The notes under the pieces were generated by a model. The model was not told the origin of the DNA and ran no database searches. It worked only from the letters and a program-made list of their open reading frames with translations. Positions 13,707-25,810 of a stretch of DNA of 25,810 bases are shown here, piece by piece. Source of the stretch: a virus (taxonomy: Duplodnaviria > Caudoviricetes); IMG/VR virus record IMGVR_UViG_3300017914_001834, positions 1 to 25,810 of that record, one strand, 5' to 3'. Every line of letters begins with the position of its first letter. Positions within the stretch are counted from its first letter, which is position 1. The position numbers and the translations under genes are program-made.

Positions 13707-14192
13707 TTACGAGTCGCGTTCTGCTCGATTGTTCAGCGCCACGTAAACATGCATCGGGATCTGGAACGATCGGATCAGTTCCGTCAATACAAATTTCGTG
13801 GGCTCACTCGGTCCATCGCTCTCGGCTGAAGGCGGACGGTAGTCGGGGAACGGCAGGAAGTCTGTCGGCTTCGTCTGCGGGGGACTCTTCTTTGAGCCCG
13901 AGAAGCCGTGCGCGATCTTCAGCATCATGTCTGCCATTCGCGCAGCGGTAATCGACTCCATATTCGCTTTCACCTGATCCATGTCATCCAATTTCTCCAG
14001 CACCCACCGGATTACTGAAATTGGAGTGCGCAGAAACTTTCCGCGCGGGAAGTCCGCCCCCATCGGCGATACACGGATTCGAAAGTAGATCTGCTCCCAG
14101 TCCGGTTCGGGACTGCGGAGATACTCCCCGATCTCTTCGAGCTCCTGCTCTGGAGTAATTACTCGTCGACTACGACCTCGGTGGGCTCCTCC
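13707..14192 (-). CDS. Tail assembly chaperone C-terminal part (gpT-like), expected as a -1 frameshift fusion with 14159-14683 (~325 aa)
   Basis: Overlaps the upstream ORF in the -1 frame and sits directly before the TMP. In-frame A AAA AAG at 14198-14192. Confidence 0.8.
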   Translation of the reverse strand, partial: GGAHRGRSRRVITPEQELEEIGEYLRSPEPDWEQIYFRIRVSPMGADFPRGKFLRTPISVIRWVLEKLDDMDQVKANMESITAARMADMMLKIAHGFSGSKKSPPQTKPTDFLPFPDYRPPSAESDGPSEPTKFVLTELIRSFQIPMHVYVALNNRAERDS

Positions 14193-14680
14193 TTTTTTGG
14201 CCAACCATCCCGCTCCCACAGGATCAGGGTGAAGATCTCTTCCAAAATCTTGGCGGGCATGGCTTCAGTGTCTTCCACGCTCCAGTCGGACAGCTTCTCC
14301 CACTTGCGCTTGCCGTTCAGCTGCGCTTCGCCCCGGTACTGCATGAACAGGGTCACGAAGGAAACCTTCTGCTCAACCGCTCCAACGTTGTCGGCTTGGA
14401 GTTCTTCGAGCTCGGGAGCGAAGTCGTAGACCAACTCCTCCGTTCCCTCTTCTCCAATCTTCGAAAGCAGCTCGACCGCTTCCTTAGTTCCAATACCCTT
14501 CGCCTTCCCGATCTTTTGGGCCACCTTGATTGACTTGAAGGTGTTTTTGCTCTGCTGACGGGTGATGAGCTCCATCCCCTTTGATTCGCCAGGCACCAAA
14601 TCGTGATACACCGGGAAACGAAATGGGGCGATCTCGTAATACTCCTCAGGGGAGAAGAGGATTGAGGCGTATTTCGACAT
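14159..14680 (-). CDS. Tail assembly chaperone (gpG-like)
   Basis: Acidic protein of about 173 aa between tail tube and TMP, with a slippery heptamer near its 3' end. ATG at 14680. Confidence 0.8.
   Translation of the reverse strand: MSKYASILFSPEEYYEIAPFRFPVYHDLVPGESKGMELITRQQSKNTFKSIKVAQKIGKAKGIGTKEAVELLSKIGEEGTEELVYDFAPELEELQADNVGAVEQKVSFVTLFMQYRGEAQLNGKRKWEKLSDWSVEDTEAMPAKILEEIFTLILWERDGWPKKEEPTEVVVDE
14192..14198 (-). other. -1 ribosomal frameshift slippery site A AAA AAG (tail chaperone)
   Basis: CCA AAA AAG GAG in frame 0; the -1 frame continues KKGGAHR... into the 13707 ORF. Confidence 0.8.
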
Positions 14681-14718: not shown

Positions 14719-14955
14719 TTATTCAGACAGCTTTCGCCGGGGCAACTCGATGTTCCACGCTCGGTAACTGTCGATCCGGTTTAGGAGTTCCTCCGGTAAT
14801 ACGACCTCGATCGTCATTTCCTTACTCTGTAAGCGTATATTTGGTGTGGGGATCATCGGCTCCAGGTAGAACGCGCCGCAGCGGAGCGTGTCGTCTTCTA
14901 CCTGGCAGTTGACCGCATACGCCAAATTGATTGGGTTCTTCAGAAGGTCAATCAT
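14719..14955 (-). CDS. Hypothetical protein, 78 aa (MIDLLKNPINLAYAVNC...)
   Basis: Fills the gap between tail tube and chaperone genes. I prefer ATG 14955 because the track start (15111) overlaps the tube gene and crosses the terminator. Confidence 0.6.
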   Translation of the reverse strand: MIDLLKNPINLAYAVNCQVEDDTLRCGAFYLEPMIPTPNIRLQSKEMTIEVVLPEELLNRIDSYRAWNIELPRRKLSE

Positions 14956-14956
14956 G

Positions 14957-14979
14957 AAAAAACCCCCGCAGAGCGGGGG
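14957..14979 (-). terminator. Rho-independent terminator after the major tail gene
   Basis: Minus strand reads CCCCCGC-TCT-GCGGGGG-TTTTTT, about 30 nt after the tail tube stop codon. Confidence 0.9.
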
Positions 14980-15007
14980 CGAGGTCTCGCTTCTTAAAGC
15001 GTAAGCA

Positions 15008-16012
15008 TCAGGCGGTGCGGAAGCTGATGCGGAATCCTTCAATCGGACGGGATGTTCCGTTTGCATCCGCATTGCCGTTTGCATCCACCGCTTGGGTGAT
15101 TGCTCCGTCAATCGCAGTCAGCACGTACACAGTCCCCGCTGACAGGTCTGCATCCGGATTCACCGTCACCACGTTGCCAGTCAGCGTCACTGCTGCTGCA
15201 ACACGGGCGTTGGTGGATGCCTCGGTCAGGGCAAAGCCTGAACCATCCGGTGTACCCAGCGCCAGCTCGGTCAGCGCAGAGGTGCCATCGCTGGTGTAGG
15301 TCGCAGTCATGCTGCTGCCCACTGCCACGCTGTCTGCGTTGTCCTGAGGAACAGTTTCCACCTGCCGGGTGCCGGGATCCAGGAACAACAGCGTGGACTG
15401 CACGTTGCCGAAGGCAATGGTGCTGGATCCGTTGTTGTAACGGCCAAACACTGGACGACCTCGGGACACCAAGTCGAAGGTGATCTCAGTGAGACCTTCG
15501 GCGTTCATGTTCTCCGCGTAGTTCATGATCACCGCGTTGAAGCCGGTGAAGTCATAAATCCAGTCGCCGCTGTTGCCGTTTGACTGGCCCAGCTCCTTCA
15601 GGAACTCAACGTAGATCTCGTAGTCCTTGTTGTAACGAGCTCGCTGGATCAGGTCGAAGCCCTCGTCGTAGTTGCCTCGGAACTGAGGGCATTGCGCTCC
15701 ACCAGGAATCTCGGCGTCCTTCAGGAAGTAGGTGGTGCAGCTTGCCTGCACACCAGAACCCGTGATCACTGAGTCGTTCCAGCCGTCGTCTCCGAGCAGG
15801 CGGAATTCCTGGTTGTTGTCGTTGATCTGGAAGTTGGTTTGGGTCACACCCTGGATCTCGACGTACTGGTCGCCAGCGTCGAGGGTGGGCAGGGTGATCA
15901 TTCCGCTCGTGTCGCGATCTGCGAAGTAGCGGCAAGGGGCTTGCAAGTCCACGGCCCGGACAATCGTCCTGTGAGCCTTATGGAATGAAAGCCCAATGGC
16001 ATAATCGGCCAT
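15008..16012 (-). CDS. Major tail tube protein with a C-terminal Ig-like (Big_5/SbsA-type) domain, 334 aa
   Basis: Strong RBS (AAGGAG at 16021-16026), high GC3 and a downstream terminator. The C-terminal 'ETVPQDNADSVAV...VTVNPDADLSAGTVYVLT...ISFRT' fits an Ig-like pattern. Confidence 0.8.
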   Translation of the reverse strand: MADYAIGLSFHKAHRTIVRAVDLQAPCRYFADRDTSGMITLPTLDAGDQYVEIQGVTQTNFQINDNNQEFRLLGDDGWNDSVITGSGVQASCTTYFLKDAEIPGGAQCPQFRGNYDEGFDLIQRARYNKDYEIYVEFLKELGQSNGNSGDWIYDFTGFNAVIMNYAENMNAEGLTEITFDLVSRGRPVFGRYNNGSSTIAFGNVQSTLLFLDPGTRQVETVPQDNADSVAVGSSMTATYTSDGTSALTELALGTPDGSGFALTEASTNARVAAAVTLTGNVVTVNPDADLSAGTVYVLTAIDGAITQAVDANGNADANGTSRPIEGFRISFRTA

Positions 16013-18061: not shown

Positions 18062-18979
18062 TCAAGCTTCTTCCATCACAATCACGCTCTTCGGGTAGTA
18101 CAGAGCTGTACCGCCGATGCGTGAATGTGCAGCCACGGTGAATTCCAGGGCCTGACGGACAGGAGGAAGGAATTCCAGAGGCTGGGGAATGTGCAGTTGC
18201 AGCTTGTCGGGGCTCCGGTCGTAGGTCACGATCCGGTCCTTGTCCAAGTTGTTGCCTGACTTGTCTGCTTCGAGCTCGTTGATCGGCTCGATTGCAGTGA
18301 TGAATGGGTTCGTACGCAGGAAGAACTCCATCACCGTCGTGTCGCTCGTGGATGAACGAGGGGTGGTGGAGATGATGCGGTAAACCTCGTAAGGCACCAG
18401 CATCGTGTTCGGCTGCTCCTTCATGTTGCTGTTCTCCACCAGACGGGTGGCTGGCTCGTTGAGGAGCTGCAGCATTTCGTCAGTGGTGATCGCAGAATCG
18501 GTGAACCACTTGTCAGGTACAAGCTTGTCCACCTGATCGTTGTTGAAGAAGCCCTTGAGGCCGGTGGCAGCGTCGCCGAAATAGGCGATCTCCTGCACCT
18601 TCTCCTCATAGGCACGACGCACTGCGTTGGCGCGACGTTGCTCCAGGTTCATTCCAGGAACCATCGCAGCAGCGCGGGTTTCCTGGATGGTGTAAGCGAA
18701 TGATGCGCCCAACGAACGAACGTTGTGGACAACTTCCTTACGCAGCACATCTGCACGGGGCAGATCCTGCGCTTTGTCCTGGATGATCTTCATCGAGCCC
18801 TGCTTGTCAAACACCCGATAGGTGTATGAATCAGCGCCCGTTCCCACTTCCGTAGAAATGGGGATCAGTTGGGAGTACTTGATGTCGGCGTACTCGACCT
18901 CGAAGCTGCGAGCCAGGATCGTCTCCAGCTCACGCGCGAGAAAGATGCCGACATCATCATTGCGAATTTCAGATGCCAT
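18062..18979 (-). CDS. Major capsid protein, DUF2184-like (HK97 fold), 305 aa
   Basis: Motifs 'FLARELETI', 'AYFGDAATGLKGFFN', 'PNTMLVP' and 'RIGGTALYYP'. Follows the DUF2213 and cement genes; high GC3. Confidence 0.9.
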   Translation of the reverse strand: MASEIRNDDVGIFLARELETILARSFEVEYADIKYSQLIPISTEVGTGADSYTYRVFDKQGSMKIIQDKAQDLPRADVLRKEVVHNVRSLGASFAYTIQETRAAAMVPGMNLEQRRANAVRRAYEEKVQEIAYFGDAATGLKGFFNNDQVDKLVPDKWFTDSAITTDEMLQLLNEPATRLVENSNMKEQPNTMLVPYEVYRIISTTPRSSTSDTTVMEFFLRTNPFITAIEPINELEADKSGNNLDKDRIVTYDRSPDKLQLHIPQPLEFLPPVRQALEFTVAAHSRIGGTALYYPKSVIVMEEA

Positions 18980-18981
18980 GA

Positions 18982-19599
18982 TCAATCAGCGGTGAAGGTG
19001 GATGCAGGGATATCCAGCTCCAGAAGAGCCAGGCCGGCCTCGGTGGTTTCAGACAGCCAGCGAGCTCCACCGATAAGCACGGTGTTGCCTGCTGAGGCGC
19101 TTGAACCGAAGCGACCTTGGTCAGCACCAGAAGTGCTGCCGCTCTGGTCGGAGATGAAGGCGCGTACGTCATCGCCCATTGAGATGGCCTCAACGGCGTA
19201 GACCCAAATCACGCCCTTGGACATCACGTTCAGGGCTTGCTGCTCGGGATAACCAACGTGCTTGGTGCCCTCTGCGTCGGTACGGAACCAAGTAGGAACC
19301 TTCTCGTACGCAGTTTGAGCAGCAGCTTCGAAGGTGAAGCAGTCAATCGAAATACCGATGATGTTTGTCGCTCCGGCTGCGAGCTCGGTTGCGTAAACGT
19401 CGTTGGTAGTCGGTGTGGTGTCCAACTGCAGCAGACGACCGAAGGGGATCGCTGCACCAGATTGGTTGTAGTAGGAACGGGACACGTAGGCCTGAAGGTC
19501 GGCCAGCATGCCCTCGTGACCAACCGTCAGCTCCAGGGGATAGTCACCCTGTACACCAATTGGATTGGTGACGGAGGTCTCAGTGAAGGTAATTGCCAT
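18982..19599 (-). CDS. Capsid decoration / cement protein, 205 aa
   Basis: Between scaffold and capsid genes, with 'AIPFGR', 'NVMSKGVIWV' and 'GARW' motifs. Strong RBS AAGGAG at 19604-19609. Confidence 0.75.
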   Translation of the reverse strand: MAITFTETSVTNPIGVQGDYPLELTVGHEGMLADLQAYVSRSYYNQSGAAIPFGRLLQLDTTPTTNDVYATELAAGATNIIGISIDCFTFEAAAQTAYEKVPTWFRTDAEGTKHVGYPEQQALNVMSKGVIWVYAVEAISMGDDVRAFISDQSGSTSGADQGRFGSSASAGNTVLIGGARWLSETTEAGLALLELDIPASTFTAD

Positions 19600-19607
19600 G
19601 GGGCTCC

Positions 19608-20900
19608 TTACTTAGAGGCGGTGAGGGGGGCTTTCCAGGCAGCAGCCATCTTCTGGCGATAGACATCGGAGGAATCGACCTGCGGTTGGCCGGCTCCACT
19701 CAGTGCCTGACGCAGAGGTGCGCTGCTGTCTGCCCGGTCTTCCTTCGCTTCTTCAGAAGGAGCGTTGGAGATGGCAGCCACGGGCTCGTCATCGTCGCCT
19801 TCAGCTTCTTCCTCAGAAGAATCCAAATGGGCGAGGATGCCGTCGACCACACCAGCGATGTACTCGGGTGCGGCGTCTTCCCGAGGTGCTTCCCCGGTCA
19901 GATTTTCAAATGCGGTGCTGTAAAGCTCGGAGTCGTCGATGCCGTCGAACTTGAACTCCTCATCAAAGGCTGGAGCCAGATGTTGAAGAGTTGCAAGACG
20001 CTGCATGACGAGAGCGTCGAGTTCAGCAGTGTCGAGACGGTCGGAAGATGCGCCTTCCAGCTCGTCCATACGCTCGGTAAGAGCGTCTGCACGGCCTTCA
20101 GCGGACTCCTTCTCATAAGCGAGGGTCTCGATCTGTGCAGACAAAGAAGAAACTTGCTCGGTAAGAGCACTCTTCTCTGCTTCTAAGCCGTCAATCCGGC
20201 GCTCCATATCCCGTGAAAAGGACTGGATCGCTGGCGCGACTTCTGCGGGCAGATCGATCTCCAGGCCGTCAAGTTTGACGGTTGCCATAACGGGAGATGC
20301 AGAGTTACTGGTCAGAAGCGCCGGAGGTTCCGGCTCGGGGTCGTAGGCCACAGCGTCTGCTGCATCCATACGATCCATCAACAATTTCACCTCGGGGCCT
20401 GCACGGCCTCGGGGTACAACTGCGATGTGATTCACCCTGATGTTGCGTTGGATTCCGCTGTACTCCTCGCCCTCGGGTGTTACGCCGGGGGTGGGGTCAA
20501 AGTCGACTTTGTAGCCGGCTGAGACTTCGCGAGCATCACCACGCTTGATCTTGTCGATGGCGTCCTGATCAGTGACGGTCAGAGCAACTTCGACAAACCC
20601 GTCGTTGTAACGCACCTGGGAACCGGAATATCCGATCTGGTGCGTCTTTGTGTTCTTGGAATCCAAGAGGACAGGCGGGTGCCCCCACGTTGCGGGTTTC
20701 ATCCCGAACGTTTGGAGCGATTCGGGATTACTGACCTCTTCGGGAGGTCGATATTCACGAACCTGGGAACCATCCGAGCGTCGATACAACTGCGTGCCGG
20801 TACGGGCAGCTCGACACCACACACGAAGGTATCCCTCGTCTGTAGTTTCTGACTTCGTAATCGGAGCGAAGTCGTAGCGGTAGGCGGAAGATGGTGCCAT
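19608..20900 (-). CDS. DUF2213 prohead protease-scaffold fusion (~430 aa)
   Basis: Motifs 'TDEGYL', 'ARTGTQLY', 'EYRPPEEV', 'TWGHP', 'EVSAGY' and 'QRNIRVNHIAVVPRGRAG', then an acidic coiled-coil scaffold. Likely start is ATG 20900. Confidence 0.9.
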   Translation of the reverse strand: MAPSSAYRYDFAPITKSETTDEGYLRVWCRAARTGTQLYRRSDGSQVREYRPPEEVSNPESLQTFGMKPATWGHPPVLLDSKNTKTHQIGYSGSQVRYNDGFVEVALTVTDQDAIDKIKRGDAREVSAGYKVDFDPTPGVTPEGEEYSGIQRNIRVNHIAVVPRGRAGPEVKLLMDRMDAADAVAYDPEPEPPALLTSNSASPVMATVKLDGLEIDLPAEVAPAIQSFSRDMERRIDGLEAEKSALTEQVSSLSAQIETLAYEKESAEGRADALTERMDELEGASSDRLDTAELDALVMQRLATLQHLAPAFDEEFKFDGIDDSELYSTAFENLTGEAPREDAAPEYIAGVVDGILAHLDSSEEEAEGDDDEPVAAISNAPSEEAKEDRADSSAPLRQALSGAGQPQVDSSDVYRQKMAAAWKAPLTASK

Positions 20901-20939
20901 GGCTAAAGAATAACGCTCCATTTCAGACAGGATTAGTCT

Positions 20940-20958
20940 TAATACGTTGAGCGTATTA
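20940..20958. promoter_or_regulatory. Inverted repeat TAATACG-N5-CGTATTA, candidate operator
   Basis: Perfect 7-5-7 dyad in the short divergent gap between DUF2213 and the HTH gene, immediately after a TAGTCT -10-like box (20934-20939). Confidence 0.5.
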
Positions 20959-20964
20959 GGACTC

Positions 20965-21180
20965 GTGGCGATTCATCGGCAATTGGCAATGTGCAGGCGA
21001 TTGAAGCACCTTAGAGACCAGGCTGGTTATACGCAAAAGAGTGTTGCGGATTATCTTTCTGTCTCTCAAGCCGCGTATTCACGGTTGGAGAAGGGGGAAA
21101 TTGAAATTAGTTTGACTAAGTTATTGGCATTGAGTGAGCTTTATCGGCTGTCGGTGTCAAGAATGATGGAAGATATTTAA
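20965..21180 (+). CDS. XRE/Cro-family helix-turn-helix transcriptional regulator (~71 aa)
   Basis: 'RLKHLRDQAGYTQKSVADYLSVSQAAYSRLEKGEIEISL' is a typical HTH_3 pattern. The start is uncertain (20947, 20965 or 20989). Confidence 0.9.
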   Translation: MAIHRQLAMCRRLKHLRDQAGYTQKSVADYLSVSQAAYSRLEKGEIEISLTKLLALSELYRLSVSRMMEDI

Positions 21181-21195: not shown

Positions 21196-21438
21196 TCAAC
21201 ATTTCCATCTGCGACGAGCGGCTTTCCCTCGCTCACCAGTCCATGAACGACTGCGGGCGCAAAAACTGGCTCGCCGTTTCGCTGCCTTCGATCCTGGCTT
21301 CACTTTCCCTGTAACGGGAGCCTTCAAGTTGCTCCCAGTTGCGCGGTTGTAACGAGCTCGGCCTTTGGCGGTTAAGCCACCGCCTTTTTCAACCGATTGT
21401 TTCTCACCGCGCCCGACGCTTAACGACGGGCCTTCGTC
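21196..21438 (-). CDS. Basic DUF6321-like module, probably made as a -1 frameshift extension of 21420-22346 (~383-aa fusion)
   Basis: 'GGGLTAKGRARYNRATGSNLKAPV...RRASFCARS...RRRWKC'. It has no ATG of its own and is reached by an in-frame A AAA AAG at 21444-21438. Family name is from recall. Confidence 0.65.
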   Translation of the reverse strand, partial: DEGPSLSVGRGEKQSVEKGGGLTAKGRARYNRATGSNLKAPVTGKVKPGSKAAKRRASFCARSRSWTGERGKAARRRWKC

Positions 21439-22346
21439 TTTTTTGCAGGGAATCCCTCTGCCCACACACTCCGCTTCGCACTCGTGAGTTTGTCCTCTCC
21501 GTCCTGACCCGTTTTGCGCTTCACCTCAGACTTGGCTTTGCTTGTAGGAACGCAATTGGGCACGATGCGGTTGCCCTTACGCTTCATACCCTTCTGCACA
21601 TAGCCCTTCCAGCAGGCATCGTCTCGGAACATGCCGGCCTGCAGTTCGCCCTCGAAACCATCTGCCCAAAATGGCTTCTTGCTGTTCCTGTAGCCCGGTT
21701 CATACTTGCGGCGCATCTTTTCAGTCATGAGACGAGCGTTGTTGAGTTTGTTTTGGCGGCGAAGGCTGCGGCTGAAAGTCTGAGGATTGAACCTCATGGT
21801 GGGCTTTCTTGCTGTGGCCTTTTGTGCGCTAGACAGCCATTTTGAGGCTTGAAGCAGATCGCCGAAATTGCGGTTCTGCTCCTCAAAATTAGATAGCTGC
21901 TTTCCTTGACGCTGACGGTTGTAGCTGTACGACTCAAGCGCGGTATTGAAAGTCTCCGAAGCTGCAAGGCTTGCTGCTTTCAGATTGCCGCTTTGAAATG
22001 CTCTCTTCGCTGATCGAGCCGCTTGAGCAGATTCGATCACGTTTTTGCCAGTGGCAAAGCTCAACAGCTTCTTATTGCCCGTCCGCTCACCACGTTCTTG
22101 CGCGTACTCAGAGGCGTTCTTTCCTGCACTCAGCAACTGCTTGACTGCACGACCTCGGTTGCCCGTTAGCGCTGAGCGGGCAGCACGAACACCTTGCACA
22201 GCAGTGGCGGCTGCAAATGCACGCTCTTTCAGTTCAGGCCCTTTCGTGGACTTGGCTGATGTGCGCTTGCTGCATTTGGCATTGTCTGGAATACCCGATT
22301 TGCCACAACGCTTATCAGCTCTGAAAGTATCAGCGGTGAGGACCAT
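21420..22346 (-). CDS. Basic modular hypothetical protein, putative internal head protein, 308 aa
   Basis: Coupled to the upstream stop (TGATG). Contains CGxSxIPx4C, two WAxGF motifs and CWKGY...VPNCVP. Confidence 0.8.
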   Translation of the reverse strand: MVLTADTFRADKRCGKSGIPDNAKCSKRTSAKSTKGPELKERAFAAATAVQGVRAARSALTGNRGRAVKQLLSAGKNASEYAQERGERTGNKKLLSFATGKNVIESAQAARSAKRAFQSGNLKAASLAASETFNTALESYSYNRQRQGKQLSNFEEQNRNFGDLLQASKWLSSAQKATARKPTMRFNPQTFSRSLRRQNKLNNARLMTEKMRRKYEPGYRNSKKPFWADGFEGELQAGMFRDDACWKGYVQKGMKRKGNRIVPNCVPTSKAKSEVKRKTGQDGEDKLTSAKRSVWAEGFPAKKTKARR

Positions 22347-22807
22347 CAGGTGTTGAACGTATTGGCGTAGATCATGTTGTGAGGCTGGCCCTGTGCATTC
22401 CGCTTGCGCTTCTCGCGGGCGTACTTCTCAGTGGCAAGCTTGTCGGCGCCCTCGGTGAGGACAAACGCTGCGTCGTTCATCTCGAAGCCCTTAGCCCAGA
22501 CGCTCCCCTTCTTGCCGCCATCCTTTTTCTTCTTGCCGCAGCCCATGTCGGCTTTGGCTTTGACGGCGTCCTTCTTGGAGCAACCACAGCCATCAGCCTT
22601 GAAAGCAGCGGCGTCGAGGCTGGGCATCCCCTTCTTGCGGGGGTCGTTCATCTTGGTCACGCCCTCGGCACCATCACCGCCCTCGATGATCTCGGTGTCC
22701 TTCTTCTTTTTGCCCTTCGACTTCTTGGCCTTCTTCTCCTCGGCTTCGCCCTCGCGGACCTCGGCCTTCTCCTTCATCTTCGCTTTTAGGGCAGGTGGGA
22801 GGGCCAT
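22346..22807 (-). CDS. Lys/Glu-rich low-complexity protein, putative internal head protein, 153 aa
   Basis: Very high GC3 with AAG-dominated Lys codons. TAAACT box 25 nt upstream. Contains GCGC and SVWAKGF. Confidence 0.75.
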   Translation of the reverse strand: MALPPALKAKMKEKAEVREGEAEEKKAKKSKGKKKKDTEIIEGGDGAEGVTKMNDPRKKGMPSLDAAAFKADGCGCSKKDAVKAKADMGCGKKKKDGGKKGSVWAKGFEMNDAAFVLTEGADKLATEKYAREKRKRNAQGQPHNMIYANTFNT

Positions 22808-22830
22808 GCCGATTCCGGAATACGTTGCTC

Positions 22831-23703
22831 TCAGTTTAGAGACAGTGGAACAGGCGCAAGTTGCTCAAATACGCCCGCCCTGGACAGGTTGACGGGCTCG
22901 ATGGTGTTGACTTCTCTCATCTCTTTCTGGTGCCGTTCACCAGCAGCCCTATAAGCGGGATCCATTGCAGCAATATCAGGATCCCAAGGAGAGAGATAAC
23001 AACGACATCGGGGGTGGACGGGGACTCGTATGTCACTGCGCTTGTAGATTTGACCGCCTCGTGGTGCGCAGATTGGGCAGGAGCGGTCATCAGCTGTCGC
23101 GTAATAGAGGACCGTGTCGACTCCATTCTGGGCGTAGTAGCTGTTGGAGGCTTCGTTGTATGCGCGAAGCGACTCAGTACGGACAATTACCTCGGCGCGG
23201 CTTTTCACCACTCCCAAACGGTCTCGTAGTTCGCGGACCATGCGGTCCTGACTGCGACCCTCGGCTATTCCCGAGGCAATAATCTCCGCTGAAGTTTCAG
23301 CGAAGCGTTCACCATGCTTTCGCAAGTAGCCATGCGATTGCTTCGCAGCTGCCACCGTCGCTTCCAACGGGATTGAAACGTCGATTCGGGGCCGGTTCCC
23401 GGCCATCTGGCCCACCAGGGCGTCTGCGACATCCACACCGTGGTCTGTCGCGCGTCGTAAGACTGTGTGGAATGTTCGGTCGTATTCATCTGTCTTGCCG
23501 GGATGAACTGCAGGGACCAGTTCGCGCAATTCGCGGAGGATTGCGATGTCGCGCTCGGTCTTAGGTGCATTTTCGGTGCGTAACCACACCCGGATGCGTC
23601 GTACGACACGGTTAAACGATTTATCCAGCACCTTGTTCAACACCTTGATGGTGTGTTCCTCCTCTCGCTTCAGGATCAGGTTGTATTCCTCAACTAGGTC
23701 CAT
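22831..23703 (-). CDS. Phage head morphogenesis protein (MuF / SPP1 gp7 family), short form, 290 aa
   Basis: 'RAEVIVRTESLRAYN', 'DDRSCPICAP' and 'PVHPRCRC' are MuF signature motifs. Confidence 0.92.
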   Translation of the reverse strand: MDLVEEYNLILKREEEHTIKVLNKVLDKSFNRVVRRIRVWLRTENAPKTERDIAILRELRELVPAVHPGKTDEYDRTFHTVLRRATDHGVDVADALVGQMAGNRPRIDVSIPLEATVAAAKQSHGYLRKHGERFAETSAEIIASGIAEGRSQDRMVRELRDRLGVVKSRAEVIVRTESLRAYNEASNSYYAQNGVDTVLYYATADDRSCPICAPRGGQIYKRSDIRVPVHPRCRCYLSPWDPDIAAMDPAYRAAGERHQKEMREVNTIEPVNLSRAGVFEQLAPVPLSLN

Positions 23704-25810
23704 GCGAAACGTGTAGCCATGTAGGCATCACGGCGGGCGCCGGTCTTCTCCTCTTTCTGAGCGGGCTCTTCTTCATCGTCTCCCTGCTCAGCGAAGCCCT
23801 GTTCACCCTGGTTCTCAGGACGGGCTCGACCATCGATTACCTCGTACATCCGGACGGTCTCGATGTAATCGTTGAGGATCTGCATCTGGTCGTCCTCCAG
23901 CTCAGCCTGCATGGCCTGACCGAGGAGCTCGGCGAACGCTTTCACATCGCCCTTTACCGCAGCAGCTTGGACTTTGGGGTACAGATCGAGCAATAAATCA
24001 TCGCCTTGCAGCTTTTGCTCCTTGGCTTTGGGTGCATCCAGCCGATCCTTGATGTACTGGCGTTCTCCTTGTACAACCAACTCCTCCACCACAGAGCTGA
24101 ACGTTCTCGCTGGTTTCTTGGCCGGCTGGCTTAAGGCGTAGTCGGTGGTCTGCTTGGTCCACTCATAAGCAACGGGAAAGGACTTTTTCATCTGCTCACC
24201 ACCGCCGATATACATCGCGTAGTTCTCCGCGTAGGTCTCCAGACGGCTACCGGTCTCGTAGTAGTTGTTTACCTTCCCGCTTGCCTTGCGGCGAATGTCG
24301 GATTGGCCGTAGTAGCTGCTTGATTTGATCAGTTCGATCTCAAGATCAGTTCCCGTGTAGACCTTGCCGTTGACCGTCACGCTTTTCGGTGTGGCGAAGT
24401 CACCCCGGTAGTGGATGGCGTGGGCGATCTCGTGAGCGTTGGTGTAGAGGGCACGGGCTTTGGAGGTGCCCACGAATTGGCCGGTGCTGTGGAGTTCGTA
24501 GAGGTCTTCCACGCTCTGGGCTTGGCCGGCCAACAACTTGCGGCGTTCAGGACCGTTGTAGTAAGCCTCGCGCTGGGCAATCATCGACTGCACACCGCCA
24601 GCCATGGTTTCGGCGTCCGTCTTGCCCTTGTAAAGCTTCACCTGTTGACCGGTGCGGCTCATGCTCAGCTCGCTTTCGCCCCTATTGGTGTGGATGCGAT
24701 TGGGTTGAGCGGTGTCGAAATAACCTTTGACACCACCTGCGAGAGCGGTGGTTTTGACACGCTGCACATCGATGCCGGCTTCCTGCACGAAGCCCACCAT
24801 CTGATCGATCGTGGCGTCCTCGACACCGTCCAAACCCTTCAGGGAACTGAAGTCTTTGACCAAGTCCTTGTTGCTGCGAGTAACTTGCAGCTCACGCTTC
24901 AGGCTCTTGGCACCGAGCAGGGAGGCAAGCGCTAATCCACCTGCAGCCAGAGGATCCTGCTTGGCAGTCTTGGCGGCAAGAACCCCAGTACCAACAGTGA
25001 AGCCGGCACGAGCGAGGGCGCTGCCGAGCTGACGGGCTCGGTAAGCAGCGGTGCGCTCACCCTTCTCGTTGGTGTGTTGGACCGCTTCGGTCTTGCCCTT
25101 CTCACGGATGCTCGCAATCTTCGACTCCTTGCTGGAGCCCTTTAAGGCTGCGCCACCTGTGCCGATCGTGCATTCGTGCTTGGAAGGGATATGCGACTCA
25201 CCGCATGCCTTCCCCTTGGACTTTTTTGAGGAGGCGTCCTCCCGCAGTCGCAGCTTCTCGGCCTCGTAGGCATCACTGCGCTTGGCAGCTAACGCCTCGG
25301 CTGGGATCTCCACACTGAAGGAGAGCTTGATGGGTTTGGCGCTCGGCCGGGGCTCTTCCTCTGCCTGCTGTTCTGCCTCTTTCGGGCTCGGTGATTCGCT
25401 CATCTTCGACACCGGCATCAGGGGAGTGACCATCTCGTCCTCATCAGCCGGCAGGTGCTCTGTGCTGGTGGGCCCGTTCACCACTGTGGGAGTGCTGTTG
25501 GTCACCAGCGGGCTCGGGGGATTGCGCTTGGTGATGGTGAGTGACATGTGCTCGTCATCCCCACGGATCTCCTTGCGGGCTAGGGCGTAAGCCTCAGCCA
25601 AAGTGCCAGTCCAACCCTTGCGCTTCATGATCGATTTGGCCAGTTCGGTCTGGCGTTGCGCGGCACTGAGTCCAGTTTTGGGCTTCTTGGGTGTGGTGGG
25701 CTTCTTGCCCTTGGCAGCCTTGGGGGTTTTGGGTACTTCGCTTGGAGCACTCAGGCCGCGAATGCCGGACTCGCGAACGATGGAGAAAGCGTCGGAAGCG
25801 TTGGGAGTGG
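23694..25810 (-). CDS. Large modular protein with a zincin-like metallopeptidase domain, 5'-truncated by the window edge (>704 aa)
   Basis: The frame stays open upstream of the track's ATG 25628 to the window end (TPNASDAFSIVRESG...PKTPKAAKGKKPTTPKKPK...). HEIAH at 24434-24420 and ETYAE at 24239-24225. Confidence 0.8.
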   Translation of the reverse strand, partial: TPNASDAFSIVRESGIRGLSAPSEVPKTPKAAKGKKPTTPKKPKTGLSAAQRQTELAKSIMKRKGWTGTLAEAYALARKEIRGDDEHMSLTITKRNPPSPLVTNSTPTVVNGPTSTEHLPADEDEMVTPLMPVSKMSESPSPKEAEQQAEEEPRPSAKPIKLSFSVEIPAEALAAKRSDAYEAEKLRLREDASSKKSKGKACGESHIPSKHECTIGTGGAALKGSSKESKIASIREKGKTEAVQHTNEKGERTAAYRARQLGSALARAGFTVGTGVLAAKTAKQDPLAAGGLALASLLGAKSLKRELQVTRSNKDLVKDFSSLKGLDGVEDATIDQMVGFVQEAGIDVQRVKTTALAGGVKGYFDTAQPNRIHTNRGESELSMSRTGQQVKLYKGKTDAETMAGGVQSMIAQREAYYNGPERRKLLAGQAQSVEDLYELHSTGQFVGTSKARALYTNAHEIAHAIHYRGDFATPKSVTVNGKVYTGTDLEIELIKSSSYYGQSDIRRKASGKVNNYYETGSRLETYAENYAMYIGGGEQMKKSFPVAYEWTKQTTDYALSQPAKKPARTFSSVVEELVVQGERQYIKDRLDAPKAKEQKLQGDDLLLDLYPKVQAAAVKGDVKAFAELLGQAMQAELEDDQMQILNDYIETVRMYEVIDGRARPENQGEQGFAEQGDDEEEPAQKEEKTGARRDAYMATRFAWT

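Follow-up and report, generated by a model that had tools for sequence, protein, structure and literature searches.

A conserved A_AAA_AAG cassette predicted to append a DUF6321 module to a head-region protein of a probable cyanophage by −1 frameshifting

The window, by which we mean the whole stretch of DNA analysed here, consists of a single phage contig, 25,810 bases long, that occurs in seawater metagenomes. Close to the end of its gene for a 308-residue basic protein lies a cassette which, from its conservation, is predicted to be a programmed −1 ribosomal frameshift (probability about 0.87); this is likely because the slippery heptamer, the frame break and the frame-0 stop are kept between relatives while the synonymous sites of the module downstream are saturated. 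At the end of the 308 residues most ribosomes would terminate, while some would shift back by one base on A_AAA_AAG, helped by a predicted hairpin, and read on through a DUF6321 module to give a product of 383 residues; the slippage would presumably be a tandem one, by two Lys-tRNAs. The cassette is a well-conserved candidate frameshift, situated in a minor protein from the head region of a likely cyanophage, whose relatives hard-wire either the one product or the other.

All elements of the cassette lie on the minus strand. The heptamer (21438..21444) is read in frame 0 within GCA AAA AAG, as Ala301-Lys302-Lys303 of the ORF 22346-21420, five codons before its stop; frame 0 continues as TKARR and ends, after the five further codons given in the initial annotation, at a TAA (21420..21422), which falls in the loop of the hairpin. 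The layout proposed there, with GAGG (21455..21458), 10 nt, the in-frame A_AAA_AAG, 6 nt and the hairpin (21411..21431), is borne out at every coordinate. Ahead of the heptamer stands the WAEGF motif (21450..21464), the usual C-terminal signature of the proteins of this cassette region. The −1 frame (21196..21444) is open for 82 codons, down to 21196, and the fusion computes to 383 residues, the length that had been estimated. Its peptide, first described as DUF6321-like, is indeed DUF6321 (PF19846), scoring 63.2 bits in Pfam against a cut-off of 28.5, with the Atlas in agreement. The heptamer alone is unremarkable, since 3 of the 39 Lys-Lys pairs in the 18 window ORFs scanned are encoded as in-frame A_AAA_AAG; in two of these three, the stop of the ORF comes no more than 13 codons later and the −1 frame stays open at length (82 and 163 codons). 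It is conservation that lifts the site at 21444-21438 above chance.

A search for related loci that assumed no fixed linker returned four viral and nine metagenome loci, to which L129 was added from loci fetched through the protease gene; with duplicates merged, the junction between WAxGF and the module exists in two states. In the shifted state, represented by three distinct loci (window/L081, L083/L183 and L097), the linker is 17 nt long and contains A_AAA_AAG; in the in-frame state, represented by eight distinct loci, it is 12 or 18 nt long and contains no A-run. DNA spanning the full shifted junction comes from those three loci and from short contigs. One further locus, L179, has its contig end inside the module and was left out of the analyses of selection, hairpin, tail and stop, tree, and starts and Shine-Dalgarno (SD) motifs. 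The heptamer is identical throughout window/L081, L083/L183 and L097, and the dipeptides preceding it differ across all data (PA, TP, EP); the diverged loci L083 and L097 thus keep heptamer, break and stop, which answers the homologue comparison proposed in the initial annotation. That annotation had also held that a single continuous ORF in homologues would speak against recoding. Such ORFs do exist, as 13 clusters of in-frame WAxGF-DUF6321 fusions with the same junction among the 120 listed matches (of 673) to an in-frame junction, but their linkers are of other lengths (12 or 18 nt in the eight loci with DNA) and lack the A-run, so that they show the fusion to be a natural product and are no sign of an error in the window. 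In each of the 13 fusions an Asp stands two residues ahead of Gly-Pro, or of what takes its place, at the position that the Asp of KKDE occupies in the −1 product, in agreement with the KKD site first noticed before the module.

The frame-0 product also has its counterparts. Of 25 protein clusters matching the last 69 residues, 17 end in WAxG[FY]-xx-KK plus five residues, and the remaining eight comprise four that end at WAxGF(T), one in-frame fusion, one in-frame remnant and two without the motif; three further KK-tail clusters among 145 new representatives bring those with the nine-residue frame-0 tail to 20, in a search whose query ended in the tail and so favoured that class, and which covered its clusters at the level of protein, up to the frame-0 stop. 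More generally, WAxG[FY] near the C-terminus is the norm of the family: counting the window and L097 sites, 21 of 38 distinct sites are within 15 residues of the stop and 14 of 38 within two. Together with the in-frame fusions, this norm means that both predicted products match forms plainly encoded by relatives. Some clusters (P0015-P0018 and P0023) end at WAxGF(T) or in a shortened remnant of the module, which has therefore also been lost in the family.

The shifted relatives may form one lineage, and their counts are not independent; the module tree, with support of 49/82, is too weak to count origins and is compatible with a single one. The linker lengths suggest that the shifted state goes back to an in-frame linker of 18 nt that lost a single base. 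A first search with the module (80 loci) gave standalone genes and fusions in T4-like phages, none with this junction; further scans for the junction pattern found the same three contigs again, one of them adding four unrelated chance matches, and no cultured phage with a WAxGF-KK tail is among the records listed (15 of 201).

The break could in principle come from faulty assembly or a miscounted homopolymer, or from a recent mutation private to this sequence; in favour of this are its position within an A-run and the fact that contigs rather than raw reads were compared. Eight sequencing runs were compared in this way, in which rare seven-A variants would drop out; one run (X18) is without coverage of the site and another (X9) has pieces reaching less than 31 nt on one side. 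No contig of the eight runs shows an indel, and six A's are kept, which settles the question of A6 versus A7 in favour of A6 at the level of independent assemblies. The site is bridged without a gap, and with between 0 and 18 substitutions, by contigs of X6, X8, X10 and X13, which belong to four studies; X3 and X5 were left out of this count as possible sources. A diverged X3 contig differs from the window at 35 positions over 226 nt, again with no gap; six differing positions fall in 21446-21453, abutting the heptamer, and none of the 30 differences listed falls in 21424-21445. Judged from these listed differences, it reads Glu-Pro before Lys-Lys. The four-study contigs and the loci L081, L083 and L097 agree on six A's; the diverged loci refute the alternative of a one-base error or mutation left standing in the initial annotation, and we give it practically no credence.

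The substitutions between relatives follow frame 0 before the heptamer and the −1 frame after it. Upstream, mismatches between the window and L083 distribute over the frame-0 codon positions as 4/2/28, and the residues that the −1 frame would encode before KKD differ in all three shifted loci, frame 0 being kept there. Downstream, over 78 codons of the module, the three shifted loci show pS of 0.69-0.83 and pN of 0.12-0.15 with no stop or indel, and their pairwise mismatches by codon position are 14/9/44, 14/11/51 and 9/11/47. As judged from these patterns, the DUF6321 module is under purifying selection, and the coding constraint changes frame at the heptamer. Beyond it, where the two frames overlap, all five tail variants tested are readable as D[EADS]GP[SN]L in the −1 frame, a property that 22 of the 95 single changes of TKARR would preserve. 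All three shifted loci and all 17 tails have their frame-0 stop at one position, which carries a stop in two of seven in-frame loci and, among distant contexts, in 4 of 69 (the relatives not being independent). The module might instead be a dead relic left by a one-base deletion, in a family that does lose it (4 of 25 clusters end in WAxGF(T), and one retains a shortened remnant); with synonymous sites saturated, the protein 85-88% conserved at non-synonymous sites, no stop or indel acquired and the tail variants tracking the −1 frame, this is extremely unlikely.

The module might also be a separate small gene of 89 residues, starting at the GTG at 21465 and overlapping the end of the 308-residue gene. 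DUF6321 stands alone in many phages, a −1-frame GTG is present in the window and in L083 (two of three loci), and in the window a GGAG lies 3 nt upstream of it. The GTG is, however, a by-product of Val-Trp codons; in L083 it has no SD motif before it, and in L097 it is replaced by CTG, with no ATG, GTG or TTG following a TGA 13 codons upstream, although the module there is intact. The −1-frame variation before KKD in three of three loci, with frame 0 kept, also speaks against translation from this point, and such a start is found in none of the best 120 module-size proteins listed. Taken together, these observations make a separate gene very improbable.

For the frameshift, the downstream hairpin is supported as the predicted stimulator. 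The 21-mer folds with −12.0 kcal/mol (z −3.8; wider windows give z of −0.3 to −2.6), and a hairpin is found in all three shifted loci, in two registers, starting 5-8 nt after the heptamer. The 30 nt following the spacer reach −13.2 to −16.1 kcal/mol in the three shifted loci against −4.2 to −12.7 in seven in-frame loci, a small margin at its narrowest (−13.2 versus −12.7); other contexts (36 distinct ones from 80 distant loci, not matched for base content) reach no better than −12.2 kcal/mol. The codons for Gly-Pro...Gly-Arg-Gly favour pairing in this region regardless of selection for a hairpin. An SD-like tetramer upstream occurs as GAGG in the window, in weaker form as GGCGG in L097 and not at all in L083, and is also present in one of the seven in-frame loci (L185); GAGG results from the codons for Glu-Gly in WAEG, a by-product rather than a conserved element, so that an internal SD is possible as a stimulator but unproven. 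The dnaX-like geometry claimed at the outset therefore stands for heptamer and hairpin, and is weak for the SD, which is not conserved. A second stable hairpin (21384-21352, minus strand) follows the heptamer at a distance of 50-90 nt, within the module; on the plus strand it resembles a terminator, downstream of nothing obvious.

RNA polymerase, rather than the ribosome, could slip on the A-run and add a base, whereby some mRNAs would encode the fusion in frame; the products would be the same, as would the selection on both frames. The run, however, is just six A's long before a G ends it, and slippage-prone homopolymer runs are usually longer than six; moreover, the hairpin trend and the X_XXY_YYZ phasing suit ribosomal slippage. 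Even with the precedent of Thermus dnaX, which uses RNA polymerase slippage (described in passages of PMC5009743 and PMC4066793), slippage during transcription is very unlikely here.

Of the heptamers compared for E. coli in passages of PMC5009743 and PMC4066793, A_AAA_AAG shifts most readily; these passages place stimulatory hairpins 5-8 nt downstream and SD motifs 9-14 nt upstream. The cassette in the window resembles E. coli dnaX in its in-frame A_AAA_AAG, its hairpin 6 nt downstream and its SD-like tetramer 10 nt upstream, all within the ranges given in these passages, and shares the heptamer with sites of the IS3 family. It differs from dnaX in that the shift there truncates the product and here would extend it, in that the SD is not conserved, and in that the carrier is a phage head-region protein. 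By analogy, the closest logic is that of frameshift-added domains on phage capsid and tail proteins: in T7 10A/10B, T3, Lactobacillus A2 and Listeria A118/A500/PSA, as far as the available passages describe them, a mobile C-terminal domain is added to a fraction of the molecules, and the same kind of domain occurs elsewhere as an in-frame fusion. What is extended there, again according to these passages, is a major capsid or tail protein, mostly by an Ig-like domain, whereas the protein extended here is minor, basic and modular, is encoded between gpF and the protease and has no major capsid or major tail match in Pfam or PHROGs, and DUF6321 is predicted to be helical. Phage frameshifts treated in the same passages of the reviews (PMC5009743 and PMC4066793) concern mainly tail chaperones and major capsid or tail proteins. 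As in lambda gpG/gpGT, a −1 shift close to where an ORF ends would yield a short and a long form in a set ratio; unlike there, the site is in the head module, between the gpF-like gene and the protease, and not between the tail tube and tape measure genes. A cellular analogy, with no homology claimed, is offered by CsoS2A/CsoS2B of the alpha-carboxysome, a repetitive shell-interior protein that, as described in part of PMC9314367, occurs in two lengths, through −1 frameshifting, in some lineages, while others make a single length; in CsoS2, however, the shift removes the C-terminus.

The minus-strand gene order around the cassette runs from a gene for a Mu gpF-like minor head protein (22831..23703, by domain and PHROG matches) through two basic ORFs, of 153 residues (22346..22807) and 308 residues (21420..22346), to the DUF2213 head maturation protease (19608..20921), the cement protein, the major capsid protein (18062-18985) and the tail genes; a convergent HTH gene (20947..21180, plus strand) precedes the protease. 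The 153-residue protein belongs to the same cassette and has a WAKGF motif of its own; the 308-residue protein, in its frame-0 form, ends in the WAxGF-xx signature followed by KKTKARR, has no Pfam match, and matches PHROGs of unknown function over residues 238-305. The antisense HTH gene is kept in most related loci and in Synechococcus phage S-CBS4, which provides the best cultured match to the protease (39.6% over 99%). S-CBS4 has the antisense HTH, protease, cement-like protein and capsid in the same order as the window, but other genes occupy the slot before the HTH; it is absent from the DUF6321 matches listed (30 of 82). The phage is probably an S-CBS4-like siphovirus with a cyanobacterial host, which we infer to be a picocyanobacterium; a search of MAG contigs for a host link gave two phage-like contigs and no host. 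A promoter and terminator scan of the window gave hits at chance level only.

Across 80 loci fetched through the protease, the stretch from gpF to HTH is a variable cassette of modular proteins. In the window (21196-25808) and in L099-L178 it encodes basic proteins that are made up of short modules with two Cys each (CGKSGIP..AKC, CWKGY..PNC, CG.SHI, DUF6321), which often start with an RxD motif and end in DS[IV]WAxGF-xP; stops often overlap the next start. The protease contains 10 RxD motifs where 2.4 are expected, and the long upstream ORF 6 where 1.9 are expected; in the 308-residue protein the enrichment is weak (2 against 0.9). The module itself is basic and has 82 residues, of which 24 are Lys or Arg and two Cys; its structural model has three predicted helices at a pLDDT of 67, no Foldseek match at E <= 0.001 and a best Z of 2.9, which has no bearing on its function, and a search by sequence for a solved structural relative found none. 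DUF6321 is very common in marine phages (7968 matches among 8000 candidates scored), where it occurs on its own in podoviruses and others, in T4-like phages behind sites rich in Glu (9 of 80 loci), and here after x-x-Asp. In the T4-like cyanophage S-CREM2, ORF137 ends in DUF6321 and is part of the virion proteome, with four peptides that cover 4.1% of it and are not mapped to the module (part of PMC10665884). A literature search, which mostly left subscription papers aside, found no report on DUF6321 or on this slip site.

We put it at about even chances that the module is head cargo, freed by the DUF2213 protease after Asp and dosed by the frameshift. The short form would then keep the usual WAxGF end of the family, and the long form would supply the module in lower copy number, to be cut free after the Asp of KKD; the frameshift would keep down the amount of module produced and, likely, the amount that enters the virus particle. 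This points to a dose-limited virion role for DUF6321. In this lineage, gene callers split or drop the module.

Related loci contain 15 distinct in-frame A_AAA_AAG sites, of which three are the junction described here and the others mostly close within 10 codons; with the exception of one in L082, these others are not shared beyond near relatives. The third in-frame heptamer of the window (25227-25221, minus strand) lies in the ORF 23694-25808, which is open at its 5' end, with a GGAGG 11 nt upstream and a hairpin of −15.5 kcal/mol. Its −1 frame stops after nine codons, and a shift would truncate the protein just before a CGESHI module. L082 has a heptamer at the matching place (1694), with an SD-like motif and weak structure; eight other similar module starts listed lack it. 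We tentatively raise the possibility, to which we attach clearly less than even odds, that A_AAA_AAG sites act as copy-number dials in a variable head-cargo cassette, one adding DUF6321 to some molecules and the one at 25227 cutting a cargo extension from some copies of the long upstream protein. If so, marine phages would dose DUF6321 in three ways: by itself, fused in frame after a protease site, and after a frameshift.

The remaining in-frame A_AAA_AAG of the window (14192..14198, minus strand) is the slip site of the tail assembly chaperone and serves as an internal control; it lies 13 codons before the stop and opens 163 codons. At this position, 34 of 35 readable relatives from the fetched loci, and also S-CBS4, have a heptamer of the XXX_AAA_N type, in 32 of them G_GGA_AAN; the individual forms are G_GGA_AAG (19), G_GGA_AAC (12), and one each of G_GGA_AAA, A_AAA_AAC, C_CCA_AAC and, in S-CBS4, A_AAA_AAA, with one relative incomplete. 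That the phage's own tail chaperone uses the same heptamer suggests that A_AAA_AAG works as a slip site in its host. The short DUF6321 cassette, with the chaperone site as a control from the same phage, could be used for studying −1 frameshifting in picocyanobacteria. Between the tail tube gene and the chaperone gene there are about 290 bases (14719-15008), which contain a short ORF and, behind the tube gene, a hairpin resembling a terminator.
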